Shown here: positions 51,726 through 62,227 of the stretch, in pieces
Layout: each line of letters starts with the position of its first letter
How positions within the stretch are numbered: position 1 is the stretch's first letter
NCBI GenBank assembly: GCA_964195975.1
Contig: CAXMQZ010000006.1
Coordinates: forward strand, 3,009-67,008
Length of the DNA: 64,000 bases
DNA from: an uncultured Polyangiaceae bacterium
Lineage (GTDB): Bacteria > Acidobacteriota > Thermoanaerobaculia > Multivoradales > JAHEKO01
Reading direction: 5' to 3'
The notes under the pieces: generated by a model
Databases searched by the model: none
What the model was told of the DNA's origin: nothing
The model's input: the letters and a program-made list of their open reading frames with translations, nothing else
Position numbers and translations under genes: made by a program

Positions 51726-52676
51726 ATGGCACTTTCCGCCTTCGATAGTGTTCACAGAGGTCTTGTGAACACCCGAGCCAACTGGGAGTTGATCTTCTTT
51801 CAGTGGCTGCAAGTCCTGCTCGTAACCATCCTGTCGGTTGCCGGTCTGCTGCCGCCTCTGGTGGCACTGGGTTTTGCGCGCCCATCGGATCTGACTTCGA
51901 CAATCTCCGACGTGCCAGCCATGCTCGCCGGCGCCGCCGAGCTTGTCGACCGGGGTCGGGATGCCTGGTTACTCTTGCTGGCCTCGCTGATACTGGCGAG
52001 CGCCATCTGGTTTGTCGCCACGATGGTCTATTGCTACTTTCAGGGTGGCATTTATGGAATCTTGATGTCGGGCGATCGCCAGGCGCCAAGTGGTAGGCCA
52101 CAGGGCAGCCAGTGGTTCAAAACGTTTTCTTGCAGGGATCTGAGGGGCTGGGGTAGTCATTTCATGTGGCGATATTTTTGGCTACTCAACCTCGTGGTCG
52201 CGGTGTCGATGGCCTGGCTGATAGTGCCGCTTGTCTTGGTCATGGCCTCCTTCTGGGGTGGTGAGCTCTGGGGTGGGGGCGCCAGGTTCGCGATTGGCTG
52301 CGCGGGTGCCATCCCGGTTGCATTCAGCCTCTTGATTCTCTTGATTTGGGCATATCTGATCCAAGCGACACTTGCGGCTCAGGATGGCGGAGTCTGGCAA
52401 GCGATGAAGAGCAGCCTGCAAATCCTTGGTCGGCGCCTGGGTGCGGTACTGTTTATCTTCCTCCTCGTGATCCTGGGGAGTGGGTTTGTGAGTTTTGGGA
52501 TTTGGGTGATATCCACGGCGGGCACCTTGATGCTGGGTCGGTGGGAGTTAGTGGGGCTTGCCTGGCAATTGGCACTTACGATGATCCAGTGGATATTCAC
52601 CACCGCGGTAGGGATAGCCTCTGCGGCAGCGCTGGTGGGGCTCGTTCGAAGCGAGATGGCAAGGGAACCTGCATGA
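51726..52676 (+). CDS. Hypothetical multi-pass membrane protein
   Basis: About six hydrophobic segments; coupled to the next gene by ATGA overlap. Confidence 0.7.
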   Translation: MALSAFDSVHRGLVNTRANWELIFFQWLQVLLVTILSVAGLLPPLVALGFARPSDLTSTISDVPAMLAGAAELVDRGRDAWLLLLASLILASAIWFVATMVYCYFQGGIYGILMSGDRQAPSGRPQGSQWFKTFSCRDLRGWGSHFMWRYFWLLNLVVAVSMAWLIVPLVLVMASFWGGELWGGGARFAIGCAGAIPVAFSLLILLIWAYLIQATLAAQDGGVWQAMKSSLQILGRRLGAVLFIFLLVILGSGFVSFGIWVISTAGTLMLGRWELVGLAWQLALTMIQWIFTTAVGIASAAALVGLVRSEMAREPA

Positions 52677-54832
52677 TCGGCACCGCGAGATACTCTGGGA
52701 GATGCTCTGGCGCGAGGAACTGGGCCCTTCTGTTGTTCGTCCTTTGGGCGCTCGTTGGCGCGGTAGCATCGGCCTCCGATCCAGTTCTTGGCACCTCTCC
52801 TCGGTTGGTGAGAGTGGGGCTCGCCACGGATAAATCGGTGGTAACGGTTCCCTGTTGCGCAGATGAGTTGATTGCTGAAGGCGGTGGGCGTGTCGTTTCT
52901 CGCATCGTCTCGCTCAAGATCGAGCCCCTGGCAGAGGTTTTGACGCCAGCCGTCTTTCGACTCCAGGCTGCCGCACTCAAAGATGAAAGACAGGCCCTTG
53001 GTCTGGCGCAGCGCTTGAGTCAGTCGCTCGGTGAGCCGGCTGATGTCGTCTTCGACGCCGGGACCGATCTGTACCGAGTTCGACTGGGTCGCTATGAGAC
53101 CCGTGAGGTTGCGCAACGGGAGCAGAGAAAGCTCGCCATGGTGGGCTTGAGCCAGTCATGGATTGTCAGTGAGAAGGGGAAGCTGGGAAAGGCCGAGATC
53201 AAGCTGAGCCAAGGGGGGAAAAGCGTGATCATGCCGGGCCGCTGGTTGAAGCTCAGCTCACCCTTCGATGACGGAATACGTACCGAGACTGGTCGCTACC
53301 GGGGACGGATACTGATCTATCTGAATGACCGTGGTCTGCTCAACGTTATCAACGAGCTGAGTGTAGAAGAGTACCTTCGTGGTGTTGTACCCAAAGAGAT
53401 GGGTCCAGCCATCTATGATCGACTCGAAGCCCTCAAGGCACAGACTGTCGCGGCGAGAACCTATACTCTGAAAAACCTCGGGGAGTTCAGCGACGAAGGA
53501 TACGACATTTGTGCCACCCCCAGGTGCCAGGTGTATGGCGGCATGGACGTCGAGCACCCGCTTTCAGATCAGGCCATTGCCGCCACGGCAGGTGAGGTGT
53601 TGACCTATCATGGTGAGCTCGTCGAGGCGCTGTACAGCTCAACCTGTGGGGGTCACACAGAAGATGTCCAGGTCGTTTTTCCGCTCAAGAACCAACCCTA
53701 TTTGAAAGGCGTGGCCTGTCTGGAGTCGGGAGTCGACCGATTGACGGGGCAGGTACCCAAGGGTGTTGCATTCCCCGGTGGTTTGACTCGGGCGCTGCTG
53801 CCGCCCACTGGTGCCGAATTCAATGCCGAGACCGTGGGTCGTCGATTCGAGCATTTGGCACTGTTGGCCGGTCTGCCCATTCCGAGCGATCGGCTGATCT
53901 CGTTGGAACGGCGCGAGGTCCAGCGATTCATAGCATCGATGTTCGATCTGGCTCTCGATGTGAGGCTGTTTGTGTCCCAGGAGGATCTGCCTTATCTGAT
54001 CGACGAGTCACCACCCGATTGGAGTGAACGCGATCTCCTGCTCGCTGCCTACTTGATAAAGAGCGGTTTGTTGTCTGGCGACCTGGACGAGCCGCTCGAC
54101 AGCGATGAGATCGAAGGAACGCTGTTTCGGCTGGCTCTTTTCTTGCGGGTTTTGGAGCAGATCGAGGGTCGATACATGAGCCTCGAGGGGGCCGTCTTGA
54201 AGGTCAAAGACGACACCGGTGAGGTTGTCGAGGTCTTGGTTCCGGCGACCATAGGAACCTATCGGCTGGTCGGTGAAAGTCAGGTGGCTACCTCCCTGGC
54301 CCTTTTGGCGGGCGATCAGGTCGATCTCTATCTCCACAACGGTGAGTTGGCAGCCATTACTCATGGAGCCGACTCCGACGGCGTCGCTTTCGACCGGACG
54401 AGCAATAAGAGCTCCTGGACTCGCTACAAGAGTGATGCCGAGCTTGCCAAGCTGGTGCAACAACGCTATCCGGGTCTTGGCTTTCGGGGTCTGGAGATTC
54501 TGGAGCGGGGAGTCTCGGGTCGGGTCGGTCGAATGCTTCTCCTGGGCGACGATGGCCAGACAGAAGAAGTAGAGGGTCTAGCGGTCCGCTGGACTCTCGA
54601 CGTTCCCGATACGTGGTTCACGGCCAAGCGGCTGACGCCTCCGGGGCGCCCTGCCGGATGGCTATTTTCAGGCCGTGGGTGGGGCCACGGTGTGGGGATG
54701 TGTCAGGTCGGTGCTTTCGGTATGGCTCAACGGGGACACGACTACCGCGAGATTCTGCAGCACTACTACAGCGGGGTGGAAATCGGGGTGGCCAACTCCC
54801 AATTGGCTGTGCGGCGCCCGTCGGCTCGCTGA
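52673..54832 (+). CDS. SpoIID/LytB lytic transglycosylase with SPOR domain
   Basis: YRVRLG SPOR pattern; EEYLRGVVPKEM, LKAQTVAARTY, CQVYGG, GWGHGVGMCQ.GA, ILQHYY. Confidence 0.9.
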   Translation: MIGTARYSGRCSGARNWALLLFVLWALVGAVASASDPVLGTSPRLVRVGLATDKSVVTVPCCADELIAEGGGRVVSRIVSLKIEPLAEVLTPAVFRLQAAALKDERQALGLAQRLSQSLGEPADVVFDAGTDLYRVRLGRYETREVAQREQRKLAMVGLSQSWIVSEKGKLGKAEIKLSQGGKSVIMPGRWLKLSSPFDDGIRTETGRYRGRILIYLNDRGLLNVINELSVEEYLRGVVPKEMGPAIYDRLEALKAQTVAARTYTLKNLGEFSDEGYDICATPRCQVYGGMDVEHPLSDQAIAATAGEVLTYHGELVEALYSSTCGGHTEDVQVVFPLKNQPYLKGVACLESGVDRLTGQVPKGVAFPGGLTRALLPPTGAEFNAETVGRRFEHLALLAGLPIPSDRLISLERREVQRFIASMFDLALDVRLFVSQEDLPYLIDESPPDWSERDLLLAAYLIKSGLLSGDLDEPLDSDEIEGTLFRLALFLRVLEQIEGRYMSLEGAVLKVKDDTGEVVEVLVPATIGTYRLVGESQVATSLALLAGDQVDLYLHNGELAAITHGADSDGVAFDRTSNKSSWTRYKSDAELAKLVQQRYPGLGFRGLEILERGVSGRVGRMLLLGDDGQTEEVEGLAVRWTLDVPDTWFTAKRLTPPGRPAGWLFSGRGWGHGVGMCQVGAFGMAQRGHDYREILQHYYSGVEIGVANSQLAVRRPSAR

Positions 54833-54889: not shown

Positions 54890-55441
54890 ATGGCGTCCGA
54901 GCGAGATATTCGGAATCTTGTACGACGGGTGGTCGACGGGATCTCGAGCGGTGAAGAGGTCACCCAGCAGGGATCGATTGAAACTGAGACCATCGCTATC
55001 GGAGCCGACCACGGCGGATACGCGCTCAAGGAGCGCCTGATCGGACACCTGCGAGACCAGGGCTATACAGTCCGCGACTGTGGCACGAACAGCCCGGATT
55101 CGGTTGACTACCCAGTGTTTGCGCAGGCGGTAGCCGAGCTCGTCTCCAACGGATCGTGCCGTTGGGGTGTGGTAGTCGATGGGGCCGGAATTGGCTCGTC
55201 CATAGCGGCAAACAAGATTCCAGGGATCCGGGCGGCGCTGTGTTACGACATCTCGTCGGCCCGAAACAGCCGTGAGCACAACCACGCGAACGTACTTACC
55301 CTGGGAGCGTCCCTGATCGGCGAAGGGTTGGCACTACAGATTTTGGATGCTTGGTTGGCAACGGAGTGGGGGCCGGGCAGACACGCGCGAAGAGTCGAGC
55401 TCATTACGGAGATCGACAATCGAACTCGGCGGAGCTCATAG
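54890..55441 (+). CDS. rpiB: RpiB/LacAB sugar-phosphate isomerase with putative encapsulation peptide
   Basis: [44 protein letters not shown]; N-terminal [15 protein letters not shown]. Confidence 0.9.
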
Positions 55442-55455
55442 GCAGACTGCGATCG

Positions 55456-56310
55456 ATGCGAGACAAAGAAGAATTGATCGAGCTCATTACTCGGCGCGTG
55501 CTGGCCGAGCTCGAGCGAACCAGCAAAGACGAATGTCCGGATTGCGAGGGTAGTTGCGTTGCCAACTGTCCCGACAAGGTTCGTGCCGTCGTCGGTCACG
55601 GTGCAGGCCGCATCAGCTACCAGGGTAACGGCGGGGATGTTCCCTCCGATATGGCCGCCTATATCGATCACACCCTTCTTGGTCCTGGAGCTACCGGCTC
55701 CGATATCGACCAGCTTTGCGAGGAGGCCGATCGATATGGTTTTGCCTCGGTGTGTGTGAATCCTGTGTGGGTCGCGCGAGCACGTCAAAACCTCCAGGGA
55801 TCGAAGGTCAAGGTCTGCTCGGTCATCGGATTCCCGCTGGGTGCAAACTCGACCGACATCAAAGTGCTCGAGGCTCGCCGTGCTCTTCGAGAGGGCGCCC
55901 GTGAGATCGACATGGTGATCAATGTGGGTCGGCTCAAGGAAGGTGACTACGATTTCGTTCAGCAAGATATTGCACGCGTCGTTGATGCTTGCCGGGAGGT
56001 CGGAGCTCTTTGCAAGGTGATCATCGAAGCTGCGATGCTCACCGATGAGGAGAAGGTCATCGCCTGCCAGTTGGCGAGCCGTGCGAAGGCAGACTTCGTC
56101 AAGACGTCAACCGGATTTGGACCTGGAGGAGCTACGGCATACGATGTGGCTCTGATGCGAGAGACTGTGGGATTGAGCATGGGTGTAAAAGCGTCTGGAG
56201 GAATCAAGACAACCGACGACGCGGAACAGATGATTGCCGCTGGCGCCACCAGGATCGGTGCGTCGGCGGGTATCAGCATCGTTTCGGGAAATGGTGGTGG
56301 AGCTGAATGA
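55456..56310 (+). CDS. deoC: Deoxyribose-phosphate aldolase with encapsulation peptide and Cys-rich linker
   Basis: [38 protein letters not shown]; N-terminal [16 protein letters not shown]. Confidence 0.92.
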
Positions 56311-56936
56311 GTAATGTCGAGCTCAGAGCATTCGCTTTTTTGGATAGTCTGCAGCCGCAGCATGCGGCCTTTCTAGGCACGATCGCAAAGGGATTCCTAC
56401 CGCTCGCTGGCGACGCGTCGCTATGGGTGGAGATCTCCCCGGGTATCGAGATCAACCGTCTTACCGACATCGCCTTGAAGTCGACCCGGGTCAAACCCGG
56501 TTTGCAGATCGTCGAACGCTACTATGGCCTTCTCGAAATCCACTCGGAGTCCCAGGCCGAAACCCGAGCCGCCGGTGAGGCGATTCTTGCCGAGCTCGAT
56601 CATGTGGAGGCTGACCGGATCAAGCCCCGAGTAGTTTCGAGTCAGATCATTCGCCATGTCGATGACCATCAGGTCCAGCTGATCAACCGGATGCGCCACG
56701 GGCATATGTTGATACCAGGCCAGACGATGTATGTGCTCGAGGTAGAGCCTGCTCCCTATGCAGCGCTGGCGGCGAACGAAGCTGAAAAAGCATCGGAGGT
56801 CAACATTCTGGAGATTCGGGCGTTCGGCTCGTTTGGGCGGGTGTTTCTGGGTGGAGAAGAGCGGGATATCGACGTCGGCTGGCGAGCCGCGATTGCGGCG
56901 CTAGAGGGCATAGAAGGCAGGGAATTGAAGGCCTAA
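56307..56936 (+). CDS. BMC-T shell protein, stacking (double-ring) type
   Basis: [37 protein letters not shown]. Confidence 0.9.
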
Positions 56937-56949
56937 GGAGGAAGGTTCG

Positions 56950-57249
56950 ATGGCAGAAGCATTGGGAATGATCGAAACACGAGGATTCGCCGCCATGGTG
57001 GAAGCAGCCGATGCCATGGTCAAGGCGGCAAAGGTTGAGCTTGTAGGCATGGAGAAGACCGGTGGCGGGTATGTCACCGCGATCGTGCGTGGCGATGTTG
57101 CTGCAGTGAAGGCCGCCGTCGACGCAGGGGTCCGAGGGGCGGAGAAGGTCGGAGAGGTCGTTTCGACGCATGTGATTGCCCGGCCTCATACGAATATCGA
57201 CGAGGTTCTTCCATTGGGGCGTGAAGAGACCGGCAAAGGCGAGAGCTAG
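56950..57249 (+). CDS. BMC-H hexameric shell protein
   Basis: [43 protein letters not shown]. Confidence 0.97.
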
Positions 57250-57276
57250 AGTCCCGGGACTCGGGATCGAGAAGTC

Positions 57277-57567
57277 ATGCTTCTAGGCAAGGTGGTTGGC
57301 ACCCTGGTAGCCAGTCGCAAAGAACCTTCTATGGAAGGTTTCAAATTCCTCGTCCTGCGCCAGATCAACATCGACGGCGATGAAACGGGCGGGTACGTCG
57401 TTGCGGTCGATGCGGTCGGAGCCGGAGTCGACGAGGTGGTGATGTACGCTACCGGTAGCTCGGCTCGTCAGACAGAAGCGACCCAGGACCGTCCCTGCGA
57501 TGCGGTCATCATGGCGATTGTCGACACCTGGGAAGTGGGAGGCACCGAGGTCTACATCAAAGACTAA
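57277..57567 (+). CDS. BMC-P (EutN/CcmL) vertex protein 1
   Basis: [27 protein letters not shown]. Confidence 0.96.
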
Positions 57568-57579
57568 CTGCCAGTCTCT

Positions 57580-59025
57580 ATGCCCTCAGTAGATACCCAA
57601 GAAGTCGAGTCCATTATCCGCCGGGTGCGCCGCCGTTTTGGCGAATCACCCGATACCGAACAGCGCGCCGACGCGGCGGAATTCGAAGTCGTCACCAGCG
57701 GTATGGGTGTCTTTCCCTCCACGGCGAGTGCTGTCGAAGCGGCCCAGATTGCCTTCGAGGCCTACCGCGAGATGGGGCTCGAGCGCAGACGCGAGGTCAT
57801 CGATCGCATTCGGGAGTCGATGCGCGAAAATGCCGAGCCTCTGGCCGAGATGGCACATCGCGAAACGGGGCTCGGGCGGGTCGAAGACAAGGTTGTCAAG
57901 AATCTTCTGGTGACCAACAAGACACCGGGACCCGAAGATCTGGAGCCACAGGTGGTTACCGGAGACCAGGGTATGACGGTGACCGAGTACGCGCCGTTCG
58001 GCCTGATCGGAGCCATCACACCAACGACCAATCCCGCCGCGACGGTGATCAACAACACGATCGCCACGGTGGCGGCGGGTAACGGCGTGGTCTTCAATGC
58101 GCACCCCAATGCCAAGCGGTCCTCCGCAGAGACGGTAAGCCTGATCAACGAGGCGATCGTCAAGGGGGGTGGACCCGAGAACCTCGTGACAACGATCGCC
58201 CAACCCACGATCGCTTCGGCCCAAGAGCTCATGCGGCACCCCAGAATTCGATTGCTCATGGTGACTGGAGGCCCGGGTGTAGTGGCCGAAGCGCTCAAGA
58301 CAGACAAACGTGCGGTTACCGCGGGGCCGGGCAACCCACCGGTAGTCGTGGACGAGACCGCAGATCTCGAAGTGGCGGGTCGCGAGATCGTGCGGGGGGC
58401 TTCGTTTGATAACAACATGGTCTGTACCGACGAAAAAGAGGTCTTTGTCGTGCAGTCCAAAGCCGATGAGTTGCTGCGCAATCTCGGCAAGAGTGGTGGC
58501 TACGTACTCAAGGAGTATCAGCTTCGGCAACTTGAGAGAACGATCTTTGTCAAGCTGGGTGAGCCGGGCAAGCCGGGACAGATCGATCGTCGCTGGATAG
58601 GCCAGGACGCCAGCAAGATCTTGGCGGAGATCGGTGTCACAGCCGGCGACGAAACGCGTCTGATCGTTGCGGAAGTCGATCGCGATCACAGCCTGGTCTG
58701 GACCGAACAGATGATGCCGGTAATGCCAGTGGTACGAGTTCGAGACGTCGACGATGCGATCGATCTGGCGGTGCGTGCAGAGCACGGTTTTCACCACACC
58801 GCCTCGATCTACTCCAACGACGTCTCTGTGATTACCCGAATGGCACGAGAGATGAATGTGAGCATATTTGTGGCCAACGCTGCCAACGTGGCCGGTCTTG
58901 GAGCTGGTGGTGAGGACTACACATCCTTTTCGATTGCCACCCCCACCGGTGAGGGCATGACCCGTCCTCGAACGTTTTCGAGGATACGACGTCTGACCAT
59001 TGTTGGATCACTGAGAATCGTGTAA
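57580..59025 (+). CDS. CoA-acylating aldehyde dehydrogenase (EutE/PduP family) with encapsulation peptide
   Basis: PTTNP, TGGPGVV, AGPGNPP, FDNNMVCTDEKE (catalytic Cys), EQMMP, ATPTGEG; N-terminal TQEVESIIRRVRRRF. Confidence 0.95.
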   Translation: MPSVDTQEVESIIRRVRRRFGESPDTEQRADAAEFEVVTSGMGVFPSTASAVEAAQIAFEAYREMGLERRREVIDRIRESMRENAEPLAEMAHRETGLGRVEDKVVKNLLVTNKTPGPEDLEPQVVTGDQGMTVTEYAPFGLIGAITPTTNPAATVINNTIATVAAGNGVVFNAHPNAKRSSAETVSLINEAIVKGGGPENLVTTIAQPTIASAQELMRHPRIRLLMVTGGPGVVAEALKTDKRAVTAGPGNPPVVVDETADLEVAGREIVRGASFDNNMVCTDEKEVFVVQSKADELLRNLGKSGGYVLKEYQLRQLERTIFVKLGEPGKPGQIDRRWIGQDASKILAEIGVTAGDETRLIVAEVDRDHSLVWTEQMMPVMPVVRVRDVDDAIDLAVRAEHGFHHTASIYSNDVSVITRMAREMNVSIFVANAANVAGLGAGGEDYTSFSIATPTGEGMTRPRTFSRIRRLTIVGSLRIV

Positions 59026-59033
59026 CTAAAACC

Positions 59034-59630
59034 ATGCACCCTGCAATACTGCTTCTCGAATTTGAATCGATCGCCGTCGGTATCGATGCGGGTGATGCCA
59101 TGGCAAAACGGGCCACTTTGACCTCGCTCCATACCGGTAGCGTCCAGCCTGGCAAGTATCTGGTGCTGGCGGGTGGAGATGTCGCCCAGGTAGAGGAGGC
59201 CCGGATCGCAGGTCGGGAGCGCGGACGGTCCGCTCTCCTCGACGAGATCTACCTCCCCGAGGTCCACGGCGAGGTCATCGACGCTTTGACCGGCAAACGT
59301 CAGCCGAGTCTCGGAGAGGCACTTGGGATTGTCGAGACCAGGACTGTCCCAGCCGTGATCGGAGCCGCTGATGTCGGAATCAAGTCGGCAAACGTGAAAA
59401 TCCTGGAGATTCGCGTAGCCGATGGCCTGGGTGGCAAGGGTTATGTCCTGTTCTCGGGTCGACTGCATGATGTCGAAGCCGCTGTCGAGCAGGCGGTCGC
59501 GAGTTTGGCATCACGAGATCAACTCATCGCCCAGGTCGTCATTCCACAACTTCACGAGGAGATGTTGGCGAATCTCGCCTCCGATCTGGAGTTTGTGCCG
59601 AGAGCTCGCTCCTACTCGCCGAAGAAGTAA
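59034..59630 (+). CDS. BMC-T shell protein, PduT-like single-layer type
   Basis: LLEFESIAVG..AGDAMAK, PGKYLVL, ALGIVET, GLGGKG, VIPQLH. Confidence 0.9.
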   Translation: MHPAILLLEFESIAVGIDAGDAMAKRATLTSLHTGSVQPGKYLVLAGGDVAQVEEARIAGRERGRSALLDEIYLPEVHGEVIDALTGKRQPSLGEALGIVETRTVPAVIGAADVGIKSANVKILEIRVADGLGGKGYVLFSGRLHDVEAAVEQAVASLASRDQLIAQVVIPQLHEEMLANLASDLEFVPRARSYSPKK

Positions 59631-59648
59631 CTACGGTCATCAAATGAT

Positions 59649-59930
59649 ATGCAATTAGGTCGGGTCATCGGAACCGTTGTCGCCTCTATAAAGGCACCAG
59701 GACTCGAGGGAGTCAGATTTCTGATCGTGCAGCCTCTCGACAAGGACCAACAAGAGGTCGGGGAACCTGTGGTCGCCGCAGACGGGGTCGCGATGGCTGG
59801 ACCTGACGAATTGGTCTACTTTGTTGCCAGCAGGGAGGCGGCGTTGGCATGTCCGCGCACGTTCGTGCCGGTGGATCATGCAATTGTCGGGATTGTCGAC
59901 CAGGTGTCACTGATGGATGATTTGCTGTGA
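59649..59930 (+). CDS. BMC-P vertex protein 2
   Basis: MQLGRVIGTVVAS, EAALA, DHAIVGIVD. Confidence 0.93.
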   Translation: MQLGRVIGTVVASIKAPGLEGVRFLIVQPLDKDQQEVGEPVVAADGVAMAGPDELVYFVASREAALACPRTFVPVDHAIVGIVDQVSLMDDLL

Positions 59931-60193
59931 AGATCGGACGCGTATCTGGTTCGGTAGTTGCGACCATCAAATCTCCTGCTCTGCAGAATCGAGCTCTGTT
60001 GCTTTGCGATCTGCTGGACGAGCGTGGTGAGGCGAACCAGGGCGGCTATACGATAGCGGTCGACACGGTAGGTGCCGGTGCAGGCGAGAGGGTCCTGATT
60101 CTCGACGAAGGTAACTCTGCACGACAAGTTCTCGCCGACGCCGATGCGCCGGTTCGAGCCGTCATCGTCGGCATTATCGATGAGGTGCGATAG
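59927..60193 (+). CDS. BMC-P vertex protein 3
   Basis: MKIGRVSGSVVAT, DTVGAGAGE, EGNSAR, IVGIID. Confidence 0.93.
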   Translation: MKIGRVSGSVVATIKSPALQNRALLLCDLLDERGEANQGGYTIAVDTVGAGAGERVLILDEGNSARQVLADADAPVRAVIVGIIDEVR

Positions 60194-60199
60194 CATCAA

Positions 60200-61405
60200 G
60201 TGCCGACTGGAAAGAATGAATCCATGAAGAGCGAAGTTGTTTTGGAAGAGACCGGGGTTGATTTCTCGCTGACGCCCGAACAGCGTGCGGTTCGAGAGGC
60301 GGCACGCGACTTTGCTCGTCAAGAGATCGACCCGATCGTCGAGGAATACGACGAGAGTCAAGAATTTCCGCGGGAGGTTTTTGCCAAGGCGGGAGAGCTG
60401 GGTTTCTTGGGGATAATTTTCCCCGAAAAGTATGGCGGGTCCGGTCTGGGCTACGTCGACTACGTCTTGGTCATCACCGAGCTGGCCAAGGTGGATCCAT
60501 CGATCGCTTTGAGTGTGGCGGCTCACAATTCGCTCTGTAGCAATCACATCTTCAAATTCGGTACCGAGCAACAGCGACAGCGTTGGTTGGTGCCTCTGGC
60601 TCAGGGTGAAAAGATCGGAGCTTGGAGCTTGACGGAGCCTGATGCCGGATCTGACGCCGCCGGTACTCGAACGCGTGCTGAGCGGGTCGAAGGTGGCTGG
60701 GTCTTGAATGGTGCGAAGACATTTATCACCCATGGTTCGGTAGGCGACACTTGTGTCGTGCTTGCGGTGACCGATCCGGATGGGGAGCGACATCGCAACC
60801 TATCTGCCTTCGTTCTCGAGCGTGGGATGAAGGGATTTCGAGCCGGCAAGAAAGAGAACAAGCTGGGCTCCCGAGCATCGGATACGGCCGAAGTGATCAT
60901 GGAAGACTGCCTGGTCCCAGAAGATCACTTGCTTGGGGAGCTGGGAGCAGGCTTTACCCAGGCCGTTACGATCCTCGATGGAGGTCGCATATCGATCGCT
61001 GCTCTGGGTCTGGGTACTGCGATGGGTGCCTATGAGACCGCTCTCGCCTATTCAAAAGAGCGACAGCAGTTCGGCCGGCCTATCGCGGACTTTCAGGCCA
61101 TCCGTTTCTATCTTGCCGAGATGGCTACGCGAATCAGCGCTTCCGAGATACTTACCATGGCAGCGGCAGTCGCCATGGACCGGGGTGAGCGTGTTACCCG
61201 GGTAGCAGCTGAAGCGAAGCTCCATGCCGGAGAGACGGCGGTCTTTTGTGCCGAGCGCGGTGTACAGATCCATGGCGGATATGGATACATCAAGGACTAT
61301 CGAGCCGAGAAGTACTACCGCGACTGCAAGATCTGCACAATCGGGGAAGGGACCAGCGAAATTCAGCGACTTGTAATTGCTCGGCAGCTCTTGAAAGGCC
61401 ACTAA
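60200..61405 (+). CDS. Acyl-CoA dehydrogenase (short/branched-chain type)
   Basis: [54 protein letters not shown]; ATG at 60224 is an alternative start. Confidence 0.92.
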
Positions 61406-61440
61406 TTGAAGTCCATTTTCCAATCGCCAAGGAAGCTCCG

Positions 61441-61839
61441 GTGATTGCAGGCATTGATCATGTCGGGATCGCGGTACGCTCGATCGACGAAGCGCGTCGC
61501 TTCTACGAGACGCTGGGTTTAGAGGTCGAAGCCATCGAGGAGATCGTTGCCGAAGGTGTCCGCGTGGCGCTGATCCCATGTGGCGAAAGCCGTATCGAGC
61601 TACTCGAAGCCACCAGCCTCGAGTCGCCGATCGCTCGATTTATTGACAAGAGGGGCGTTGGAATTCATCACATTTGTTTGGCGACTTCCGATGTACGATC
61701 GGATCAGGGGTTGCTCGAAGACGCTGGGTTCGAAGTGCTGAGACCTGAGCCGACGCGAGGGGCCGAGGGCTGCTGGATACAGTTCGTCCACCCCAAAAGT
61801 GTGGGAGGAGTCTTGGTGGAGCTGTCGGAGCGGCCCTGA
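61441..61839 (+). CDS. mce: Methylmalonyl-CoA epimerase (VOC fold)
   Basis: IDHVGIAV, IELLE, GIHHICL, FVHPKSVGGVLVEL. Confidence 0.9.
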   Translation: MIAGIDHVGIAVRSIDEARRFYETLGLEVEAIEEIVAEGVRVALIPCGESRIELLEATSLESPIARFIDKRGVGIHHICLATSDVRSDQGLLEDAGFEVLRPEPTRGAEGCWIQFVHPKSVGGVLVELSERP

Positions 61840-61897
61840 TGGCGATGTCAGCTCGCGATATCAGTTCGTGGCGACTTGACGATAAGGAGAGCTAGCG

Positions 61898-62227
61898 ATG
61901 TTGGCATCAAACTCAATCGTGATTGCACACTTGGTGAATCCGACGGAAAAGTTTTGGGGAGTCTTGCTCAACCTCGACTCCAGCGGTCTAACTCTTCGCG
62001 GCATCAATGTCGCCAGTTTCGACGAGTGGATGTTTCAAATTGCTCGGCAGGATGAGAGGACCCTGGGTCTATCGACCATGTTTGTTCCGCTGTCTAGGGT
62101 AGAAAGAATTTTTCTCGATGAGCAAATAGGAGAAGTGGAGTCCTACCGGCAGCGATTCGAGCACAACGTGGGTCAATCGATCGAAGGTCTTTTGGGGTTG
62201 GAGCAGGTAGAAGAAGTCCCCTCCTAG
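61898..62227 (+). CDS. Conserved-looking hypothetical protein, possible Sm/SH3-like fold
   Basis: RBS AAGGAG; beta-strand pattern EKFWGVLLNLD.GLTLRG...MFVPLSRVERI. Confidence 0.6.
   Translation: MLASNSIVIAHLVNPTEKFWGVLLNLDSSGLTLRGINVASFDEWMFQIARQDERTLGLSTMFVPLSRVERIFLDEQIGEVESYRQRFEHNVGQSIEGLLGLEQVEEVPS

Follow-up and report, generated by a model that had tools for sequence, protein, structure and literature searches.

A probable SPU3-subtype sugar-phosphate microcompartment operon from a marine-sediment Acidobacteriota genome

Bacterial microcompartments (BMCs) of the sugar-phosphate-utilising (SPU) class are recognised by a pfam01791 and pfam02502 pair that occurs together with an aldehyde dehydrogenase (AldDH) and a triplet of BMC-P pentamer genes. 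More than 280 such loci from 26 phyla have been catalogued in seven subtypes, and the DeoC-type pfam01791 aldolase is the signature enzyme, unique to the class (Sutter 2021, Nat Commun 12:3809, PMC8217296). The only SPU system with biochemistry is the SPU6 BMC of Chloroflexi bacterium GWB2_54_36, whose deoxyribose-phosphate aldolase (DERA) cleaves deoxyribose-5-phosphate and forms a stable complex with the RpiB-type protein (RPI) encoded with it. That RPI has negligible ribose-5-phosphate isomerase activity, and an Asp in place of the catalytic Cys is reported in all SPU RPIs (Dwyer, Sutter, Kerfeld 2024, Commun Biol 7:1562, PMC11585597). Here we describe a nine-gene operon at 54890-60193, on the + strand of a 64,000-nt stretch of an Acidobacteriota genome (the window, in which all unlabelled positions are given), that a first-pass annotation had singled out as a complete Haliangium-type microcompartment. 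It is very probably an SPU3-subtype, sugar-phosphate-utilising metabolosome operon of a marine-sediment Acidobacteriota host, to which the published deoxyribose-5-phosphate model applies.

The operon is real and intact. Its nine open reading frames (ORFs) are co-directional and tightly packed, with intergenic distances of -4 to 27 nt, and encode, in order, an RpiB-like protein, DeoC/DERA, a CcmP-like stacking BMC-T, a BMC-H, a BMC-P, an acylating AldDH, a PduT-like BMC-T and two further BMC-P proteins. The first-pass annotation had described a complete, compact operon over this interval, and its gene list stands: all nine ORFs lie where it had put them, with family matches far beyond chance. 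The sub-order stacking BMC-T, BMC-H, BMC-P, AldDH, BMC-T is as it had claimed, and the rpiB-type gene, deoC and the two extra BMC-P genes all fall within the same operon on the same strand. We place the deoC start at the conserved ATG 55456, 14 nt past the rpiB stop, as the resulting N-terminus agrees with the orthologues. The earliest in-frame start, TTG 55351, would overlap rpiB and was not adopted.

SPU3 is defined in Sutter 2021, Supplementary Data 2, where Acidobacteria are among the listed hosts, and our typing is based on the text definitions of that catalogue together with a comparison of loci. Of the general features of the class, a DERA encoded with shell genes, an Asp-type pfam02502 protein and a pfam00171 acylating AldDH are present, the three BMC-P genes agree in number and arrangement, and the features that define the subtype are present too. 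The AldDH, the pfam02502 protein and the pfam01791 aldolase are the only enzymes, with the pfam02502 gene upstream of the pfam01791 gene, and the AldDH and the aldolase have predicted N-terminal encapsulation peptides (EPs). There is a single stacking, double-layer tandem-domain protein (BMC-Tdp), which is CcmP-like. The single-layer tandem-domain protein (BMC-Ts) has no pore cysteine, and there is no PduS-like gene among the nine genes or in their immediate flanks. The one BMC-H is of the standard kind, with KAAK and ARPH motifs. Phosphotransacylase (PTAC), triose-phosphate isomerase (TPI) and PduS are all absent from the locus. A catalogued locus from Chloroflexi bacterium RBG_16_72_14 (L075) shares the identical nine-gene order, at 57-81% protein identity, and thereby anchors the assignment: its Tdp (209 aa, 77% identical to the one described here) is labelled Tdp_bland_ccmPlike and typed 'SPU3 (main)' in the catalogue's Tdp tree.

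The same cassette recurs widely. A scan of species-representative genomes gave at least 556 relatives of the AldDH, and the loci of the 80 nearest were compared. Every untruncated locus among these had the nine-gene order on one strand, in Acidobacteriota, Acidimicrobiia, Gaiellaceae, Nitriliruptoraceae, Chloroflexota and Verrucomicrobiota; a truncated locus in the myxobacterium Chondromyces held the final five genes, likewise ordered. The loci closest to this one, at 66-77% AldDH identity, came from Thermoanaerobaculia / 'Ca. Multivoradales' Acidobacteriota metagenome-assembled genomes. They also shared the flanking genes, with a SPOR-SpoIID gene on the upstream side and, downstream, genes for an acyl-CoA dehydrogenase and a glyoxalase-fold protein and the 109-aa ORF; the host itself looks like a member of Thermoanaerobaculia. 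Within the host's class, BMC-P genes were found in 74 of 201 sampled genomes (33 of 81 genera), almost always three to a genome. The host genome is 4.24 Mb and 95.8% complete, and the stretch occurs in near-identical form in marine-sediment and cold-seep metagenomes from several studies.

Table 1. Genes of the microcompartment operon, with positions in the window and the matches on which each family assignment is based.
Gene product	Position	Strand	Family evidence
RpiB-like protein, 183 aa	54890..55441	+	PF02502 1e-52; RpiB/LacAB domain from residue 35
DERA/DeoC, 284 aa, with 65-aa N-terminal extension	55456..56310	+	TIGR00126 274 bits (cut-off 117); PF01791
BMC-Tdp, stacking double-layer pseudohexamer, CcmP-like clade, 209 aa	56307..56936	+	NF053796, PDB matches
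BMC-H, single hexamer shell protein, 99 aa	56950..57249	+	PF00936 3e-30
BMC-P number 1, pentamer vertex protein, 96 aa	57277..57567	+	PF03319 1e-28
CoA-acylating AldDH, 481 aa	57580..59025	+	PRK15398 619 bits
BMC-Ts, single-layer tandem-domain trimer, PduT-like, 198 aa	59034..59630	+	two PF00936 domains
BMC-P number 2, 93 aa, first of adjacent pair	59649..59930	+	PF03319 3e-24
BMC-P number 3, 88 aa, GTG start, 4-nt overlap with BMC-P number 2	59927..60193	+	PF03319 2e-25

We examined the catalytic residues of the three enzymes by alignment. Against the PDB sequences of E. coli and C. thermocellum RpiB, the RpiB-like protein has Asp97 at the position of the E. coli catalytic Cys66 and keeps His130. 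The Asp was found in 62/62 orthologues, in which His130 is likewise invariant. The equivalent of M. tuberculosis Glu75 is a Ser, so neither known catalytic base is present. The first-pass annotation had named this gene rpiB, but a working ribose-5-phosphate isomerase is unlikely: with Asp97 in place of the catalytic Cys, and with an SPU6 homologue that is nearly inactive and instead forms a complex with DERA, the protein is more likely to serve as a DERA-binding packaging partner or scaffold. Elsewhere in the genome (contig C81:11773-12186) lies another rpiB, a housekeeping gene of the M. tuberculosis type whose product has a GGSGNGE motif and Glu as the catalytic base, and the microcompartment gene is thus a specialised paralogue. 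The TIM barrel of DERA begins at about residue 65, and from there on the protein strongly matches ordinary DERAs (best PDB match 257 bits), with the catalytic residues D152, K187, K216 and K245 conserved; it is the only DeoC in the genome. The top PDB match of the AldDH was a BMC-associated acylating AldDH (5jfl, 411 bits), with the catalytic Cys282 aligned. One 130-nt, adapter-flanked contig from a marine-sediment metatranscriptome (run X23) matched positions 55107-55236, inside the RpiB-like gene, at 99% identity.

All three enzymes have N-terminal extensions that are not found in their non-BMC homologues. In the RpiB-like protein a helix spans about residues 4-18 (nt 54899-54943) and a linker of 16 aa comes next; in the AldDH a helix, QEVESIIRRVRRRF, spans about residues 7-20 (nt 57598-57639) and leads into about 25 residues of variable sequence; and in DERA a helix at residues 4-25 is followed by a structured piece of 40 aa. 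The helices are conserved in more than 60 orthologues, and the linkers vary in both length and sequence. Hydrophobic moments of the helices were at or near the top of each protein (0.99, the highest, in RPI; 0.90, the top value, in the AldDH; and 0.72 in DERA). An AlphaFold2 (AF2) model of DERA (49 sequences, mean pLDDT 83) placed a helix at 4-25, a short helix at 39-47 and a strand at 53-55 ahead of the barrel, in agreement with the published 'helix plus strands' description of the extension (Dwyer 2024, PMC11585597). The amphipathic N-terminal helices that had been proposed for all three enzymes are therefore upheld by conserved helices on variable linkers, and we infer that the enzymes would be encapsulated through them. 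All ORF N-termini of the genome were also scanned for the shared helix pattern. As only the proteins of the locus and five chance-like matches were returned, we found no satellite cargo.

Between the targeting helix and the barrel, DERA carries four cysteines, C27-x2-C30-x3-C34-x3-C38 (CxxCxxxCxxxC; nt 55534-55569). Among 66 complete orthologues drawn from the 80 nearest loci, 26 had the four-Cys motif, 3 a five-Cys variant and 10 three Cys, and 27 had lost it; those without the motif were mostly from Acidimicrobiia, with some from Thermoanaerobaculales. Pfam gave only a sub-threshold Fer4_6 match to the extension (E = 0.039), and AF2 returned no confident fold over the Cys region (pLDDT 45-55). 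In a comparison of the extension with 1.84 billion representative proteins, the true matches were N-terminal pieces of DERA-like proteins, with three spurious repeat proteins besides, and the module was not found on other cargo. One of the library proteins (P0003, 280 aa) joins the DERA N-terminal extension to a C-terminus that by eye resembles MreB/actin, and is most likely an assembly chimera. It is doubtful, although not far-fetched, that the motif is more than a neutral linker and binds a metal or an Fe-S cluster as a small module. If so, it may make cargo condensation dependent on redox state or on metal, or it may exchange electrons within a shell that has no redox parts of the PduS/PduT type. 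The patchy distribution speaks against an essential role, although a lineage-specific one would be compatible with it. Neither Sutter 2021 nor Dwyer 2024 mentions the motif in the main text (supplements being covered in part), and it may be the sole detail of the locus that is undescribed.

The shell set is full: it comprises a single BMC-H, a CcmP-like stacking BMC-T, a PduT-like BMC-T that has no pore cysteine, and three BMC-P proteins. The BMC-Tdp scored 339.2 bits against the NCBI CcmP model NF053796 (cut-off 340) and is 64% identical to CcmP over 204 residues; its PDB scores were 293 bits for CcmP (4ht5), 256 for T3 of Haliangium ochraceum (HO; 5v76), 231 for HO-5816 and 178 for CsoS1D. 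Its Glu70-Arg71 aligns with the pore-gating pair of CcmP. In the CcmP structure this Glu-Arg pair gates the pore. The BMC-H carries a KTGGGYVTA motif alongside the standard KAAK and ARPH interface motifs. Among solved structures its closest relative is a Haliangium protein, HO-5815, at 78% identity, and the top PDB match of BMC-P number 1 is the HO BMC-P (5v74_A1) at 64% identity; the closeness of these two proteins to Haliangium had been noticed in the first-pass annotation and is correct. The BMC-Ts matched PduT (3pac, 123 bits) ahead of HO T1 (5dih, 87 bits), with Gln38 at the position of the PduT Fe-S pore cysteine (svqPGKY here, ticPGKF in PduT). Two genes of the BMC-P triplet are adjacent, and the third adjoins the BMC-H gene. 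The BMC-H is the sole single-domain PF00936 gene of the genome, and all three PF03319 matches of the genome fall in this locus. A genome-wide PF00936 scan found no BMC domains outside it, with a model that misses even the Tdp described here.

The organelle most likely breaks down deoxyribose phosphate from DNA. The chemistry proposed in the first-pass annotation, from deoxyribose-5-phosphate to acetaldehyde and glyceraldehyde-3-phosphate and on to acetyl-CoA, agrees with the published class model, which, together with a single SPU6 homologue studied in vitro, is also our source for the mechanism. 2-Deoxyribose-5-phosphate would enter the shell and be cleaved by DERA into glyceraldehyde-3-phosphate, which would leave, and acetaldehyde, which would be held inside. 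The AldDH would then convert acetaldehyde, CoA and NAD+ to acetyl-CoA and NADH, and the RpiB-like protein would bind DERA as a packaging partner. No PduL (PF06130) and no true Pta were found in the genome, where the sole PF01515 match is a MaeB-type malic enzyme, and the locus has neither an alcohol dehydrogenase nor PduS. Acetyl-CoA, CoA and NAD(H) would thus need a way across the shell, for which the gated CcmP-like trimer is a plausible route; passage through a gated Tdp is a published suggestion (Dwyer 2024, PMC11585597). Directly upstream of three related cassettes we noted genes for a PfkB kinase and an IU nucleoside hydrolase (L059:2400-4414), for a GntR/UTRA regulator and a sugar-binding protein (L049:1438-3696), and for a cytidine deaminase (L021:2266-2634). 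Nucleoside genes beside a few related SPU3 cassettes anecdotally fit the scavenging of DNA. We found no conserved regulator or transporter beside the cassette in its relatives, as no flanking family occurred in more than 7 of 39 loci.

Several observations weigh against this account. SPU biochemistry is limited to SPU6. The 95.8% complete genome has no canonical phosphopentomutase DeoB and no clear ribokinase or deoxyribokinase, so the route that supplies deoxyribose-5-phosphate is unaccounted for; the genome has pyrimidine- and purine-nucleoside phosphorylase homologues, SurE (C81:44-50 kb) and an IU nucleoside hydrolase (C35). The model leaves the role of the RpiB-like protein and the recycling of cofactors within the shell unexplained. 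The boundaries of the operon lack defining sequence signals, as scans of the region for promoters, terminators and Rfam families gave nothing above background. Three small metatranscriptomes, from a study that also holds the DNA of the organism, yielded a single near-identical fragment of 130 nt, which is too little to speak of expression.

On its upstream side the operon is preceded by a gene for a large protein with SPOR and SpoIID domains (52346-54832), which ends 57 nt before it and is syntenic with the cassette only within the host's lineage. Downstream, positions 60200-62227 hold an acyl-CoA dehydrogenase gene, a glyoxalase-fold ORF resembling methylmalonyl-CoA epimerase, and a 109-aa ORF of no family. 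The start codon of the acyl-CoA dehydrogenase gene is either a GTG 6 nt or an ATG 30 nt downstream of the last BMC-P, and the top NCBIfam match of the protein is acryloyl-CoA reductase, at 425 bits, which is under the cut-off of that model. The epimerase-like ORF has no ATG, GTG or TTG near the start of its domain (61390-61440), so its start is uncertain.

Two alternatives concern the kind of locus and its extent. A microcompartment of the HO type, with its signature enzymes in the main locus, was the first-pass reading, and the likeness of BMC-H and BMC-P number 1, the best among solved structures, speaks for it. So does the sub-order Tdp-H-P-AldDH-Ts, which is that of Hoch_5816 to Hoch_5812. 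Sutter 2021 (PMC8217296) allows that HO and SPU have a function in common and places the HO AldDH closest to those of SPU5 and SPU7. However, the catalogue gives the HO main locus as shell genes and AldDH only, with no pfam01791 or pfam02502. The HO type has two Tdp proteins, one that is CsoS1D-like in the main locus and one that is CcmP-like in a satellite; its candidate cargo is a class II aldolase, and the hosts are mostly Deltaproteobacteria (Myxococcales) (Sutter 2021 catalogue). Here DERA and RpiB-like genes open the operon, the single Tdp in the locus is CcmP-like, the Ts is PduT-like with only a weak match to HO T1, and both the host and the nearest loci are acidobacterial. A catalogue-typed SPU3 locus, moreover, has exactly the same gene order. 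On a comparison with PDB sequences and catalogue text, we therefore consider the HO type extremely improbable and did not retain the name Haliangium-type; the resemblance of the shell proteins to Haliangium is, judged by these alignments, real but partial. The ACI type, in which a pfam00596 class II aldolase with a C-terminal EP occurs with a hydroxyacid dehydrogenase and the AldDH lies on a satellite locus (Sutter 2021, PMC8217296), was rejected, as the locus has neither of the first two genes and its AldDH gene is part of the operon. The short gap after the last BMC-P, with no terminator-like site in it, would also allow the operon to run on into the acyl-CoA dehydrogenase and glyoxalase-fold genes as parts of the organelle's pathway, and these genes and the 109-aa ORF trail the cassette in Thermoanaerobaculia-like relatives. 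This extension is very improbable. The two genes adjoin the cassette in the host's lineage only and are absent beside it in Actinomycetota, Chloroflexota and Verrucomicrobiota; the acyl-CoA dehydrogenase has no N-terminal extension, its Pfam domain beginning at residue 25 and its amphipathic stretch falling inside that domain. Since cassettes from other phyla have none of these flanking genes beside them, and no further family is found there repeatedly, the nine genes form the unit, and the acyl-CoA dehydrogenase and epimerase-like genes are best seen, on comparative gene order, as lineage synteny and not as members of the cassette.

Two further alternatives accept the nine genes and concern their chemistry. 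The true substrate could be another sugar phosphate, in which case the RpiB-like protein, with its Asp, would be no scaffold but a re-tooled isomerase acting to prepare or remove a substrate or product of DERA. The invariance of Asp97 and His130 in 62 orthologues suggests that the active-site region is under selection, promiscuity is common among RpiB enzymes, Dwyer 2024 (PMC11585597) leaves this alternative open, and the separate M. tuberculosis-type RpiB of the genome leaves the BMC copy free to specialise. We nevertheless think this unlikely, as the protein has neither the Cys66 nor the Glu75 equivalent that act as bases in E. coli and M. tuberculosis, the SPU6 homologue showed no activity on ribose-5-phosphate, and RPI is absent from SPU5 and many SPU4 loci and so is not essential to the core chemistry (PMC11585597). 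The pathway could also run in reverse as a sink for aldehyde and NADH, with the AldDH reducing acetyl-CoA to acetaldehyde, DERA condensing this with glyceraldehyde-3-phosphate to deoxyribose-5-phosphate, and the RpiB-like protein isomerising the product. The reactions of DERA and of the acylating AldDH are both reversible. The setting, anoxic marine sediment and cold seeps, is one where electron sinks matter, and the absence of enzymes that supply deoxyribose-5-phosphate is easier to accept if it is a product. A role of this kind is already in the literature for SPU-like loci, in that an aldehyde-condensing function was proposed for Atribacteria by Nobu et al. 2016, as summarised in PMC6281690. 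The use of deoxyribose-5-phosphate as a product is equally unaccounted for in the genome, though; the RpiB-like protein lacks the known catalytic bases and its SPU6 homologue is nearly inactive; nucleoside-catabolic genes flank a few related cassettes; and a catabolic role, on sugar that comes from DNA, is what the curators of the class prefer (Sutter 2021, PMC8217296; Dwyer 2024, PMC11585597). We thus hold a reverse direction to be improbable, and prefer the breakdown of deoxyribose phosphate with a DERA-binding RpiB-like partner.

The locus is an ordinary new example of the catalogued, partly characterised SPU3 class. The first-pass annotation had argued that the native function of such organelles is unsettled and that a compact, complete locus would make a good test system. 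That argument is weakened by the more than 280 catalogued SPU loci, one of them partly characterised, and by the AldDH relatives found here. Compact nine-gene SPU3 cassettes are reasonable material for expression studies, and this copy has no advantage over many others. The questions that it raises are those of the whole SPU class and have already been stated in the literature. What the locus contributes is mainly one further case, from a marine-sediment acidobacterium, of a class known from hundreds of genomes, and its value lies in a clean annotation.

Among described systems, the HO microcompartment (PDB 5V74, 5DJB, 5V76, 5DIH) resembles this one in having one BMC-H, three BMC-P, a Ts and a Tdp, and an AldDH with an N-terminal EP. 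Unlike this locus, it has two Tdp proteins and no DERA or RPI in the locus, and its T1 only weakly matches the Ts found here. The beta-carboxysome is approached through CcmP (4HT5, 5LSR), to which the Tdp is 64% identical with the Glu-Arg gating pair aligned. In contrast to the beta-carboxysome, the locus has no RuBisCO, CcmM/N or carbonic anhydrase; its context is that of a catabolic metabolosome, and the Tdp is therefore CcmP-like rather than CcmP. The SPU6 system of GWB2_54_36 likewise has a DERA extension, of about 65-70 aa, and its RPI combines an EP with Asp at the position of the catalytic Cys. It also has an acylating AldDH, a Tdp, one BMC-H and a BMC-P triplet, and like this locus it has no PTAC. 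It differs in that its AldDH carries the EP at the C-terminus and falls on a different branch of the AldDH tree, its Tdp belongs to the 'blue' clade whereas ours is CcmP-like, it has no Ts, and it has an upstream GntR/UTRA regulator where there is none here. SPU3 loci, such as that of RBG_16_72_14, are alike in gene content and order, EPs, the one BMC-H, the BMC-P triplet with two of its genes adjacent, the CcmP-like Tdp, and the Ts without a pore Cys or PduS. RPI and DERA are separate genes here and are fused in 12-20 catalogued SPU3 loci, and the RPI here has an N-terminal helix of its own, which is unlisted in the SPU3 description, although RPI EPs are reported for SPU generally (Dwyer 2024). 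Neither of these differences bears on the definition of the type.

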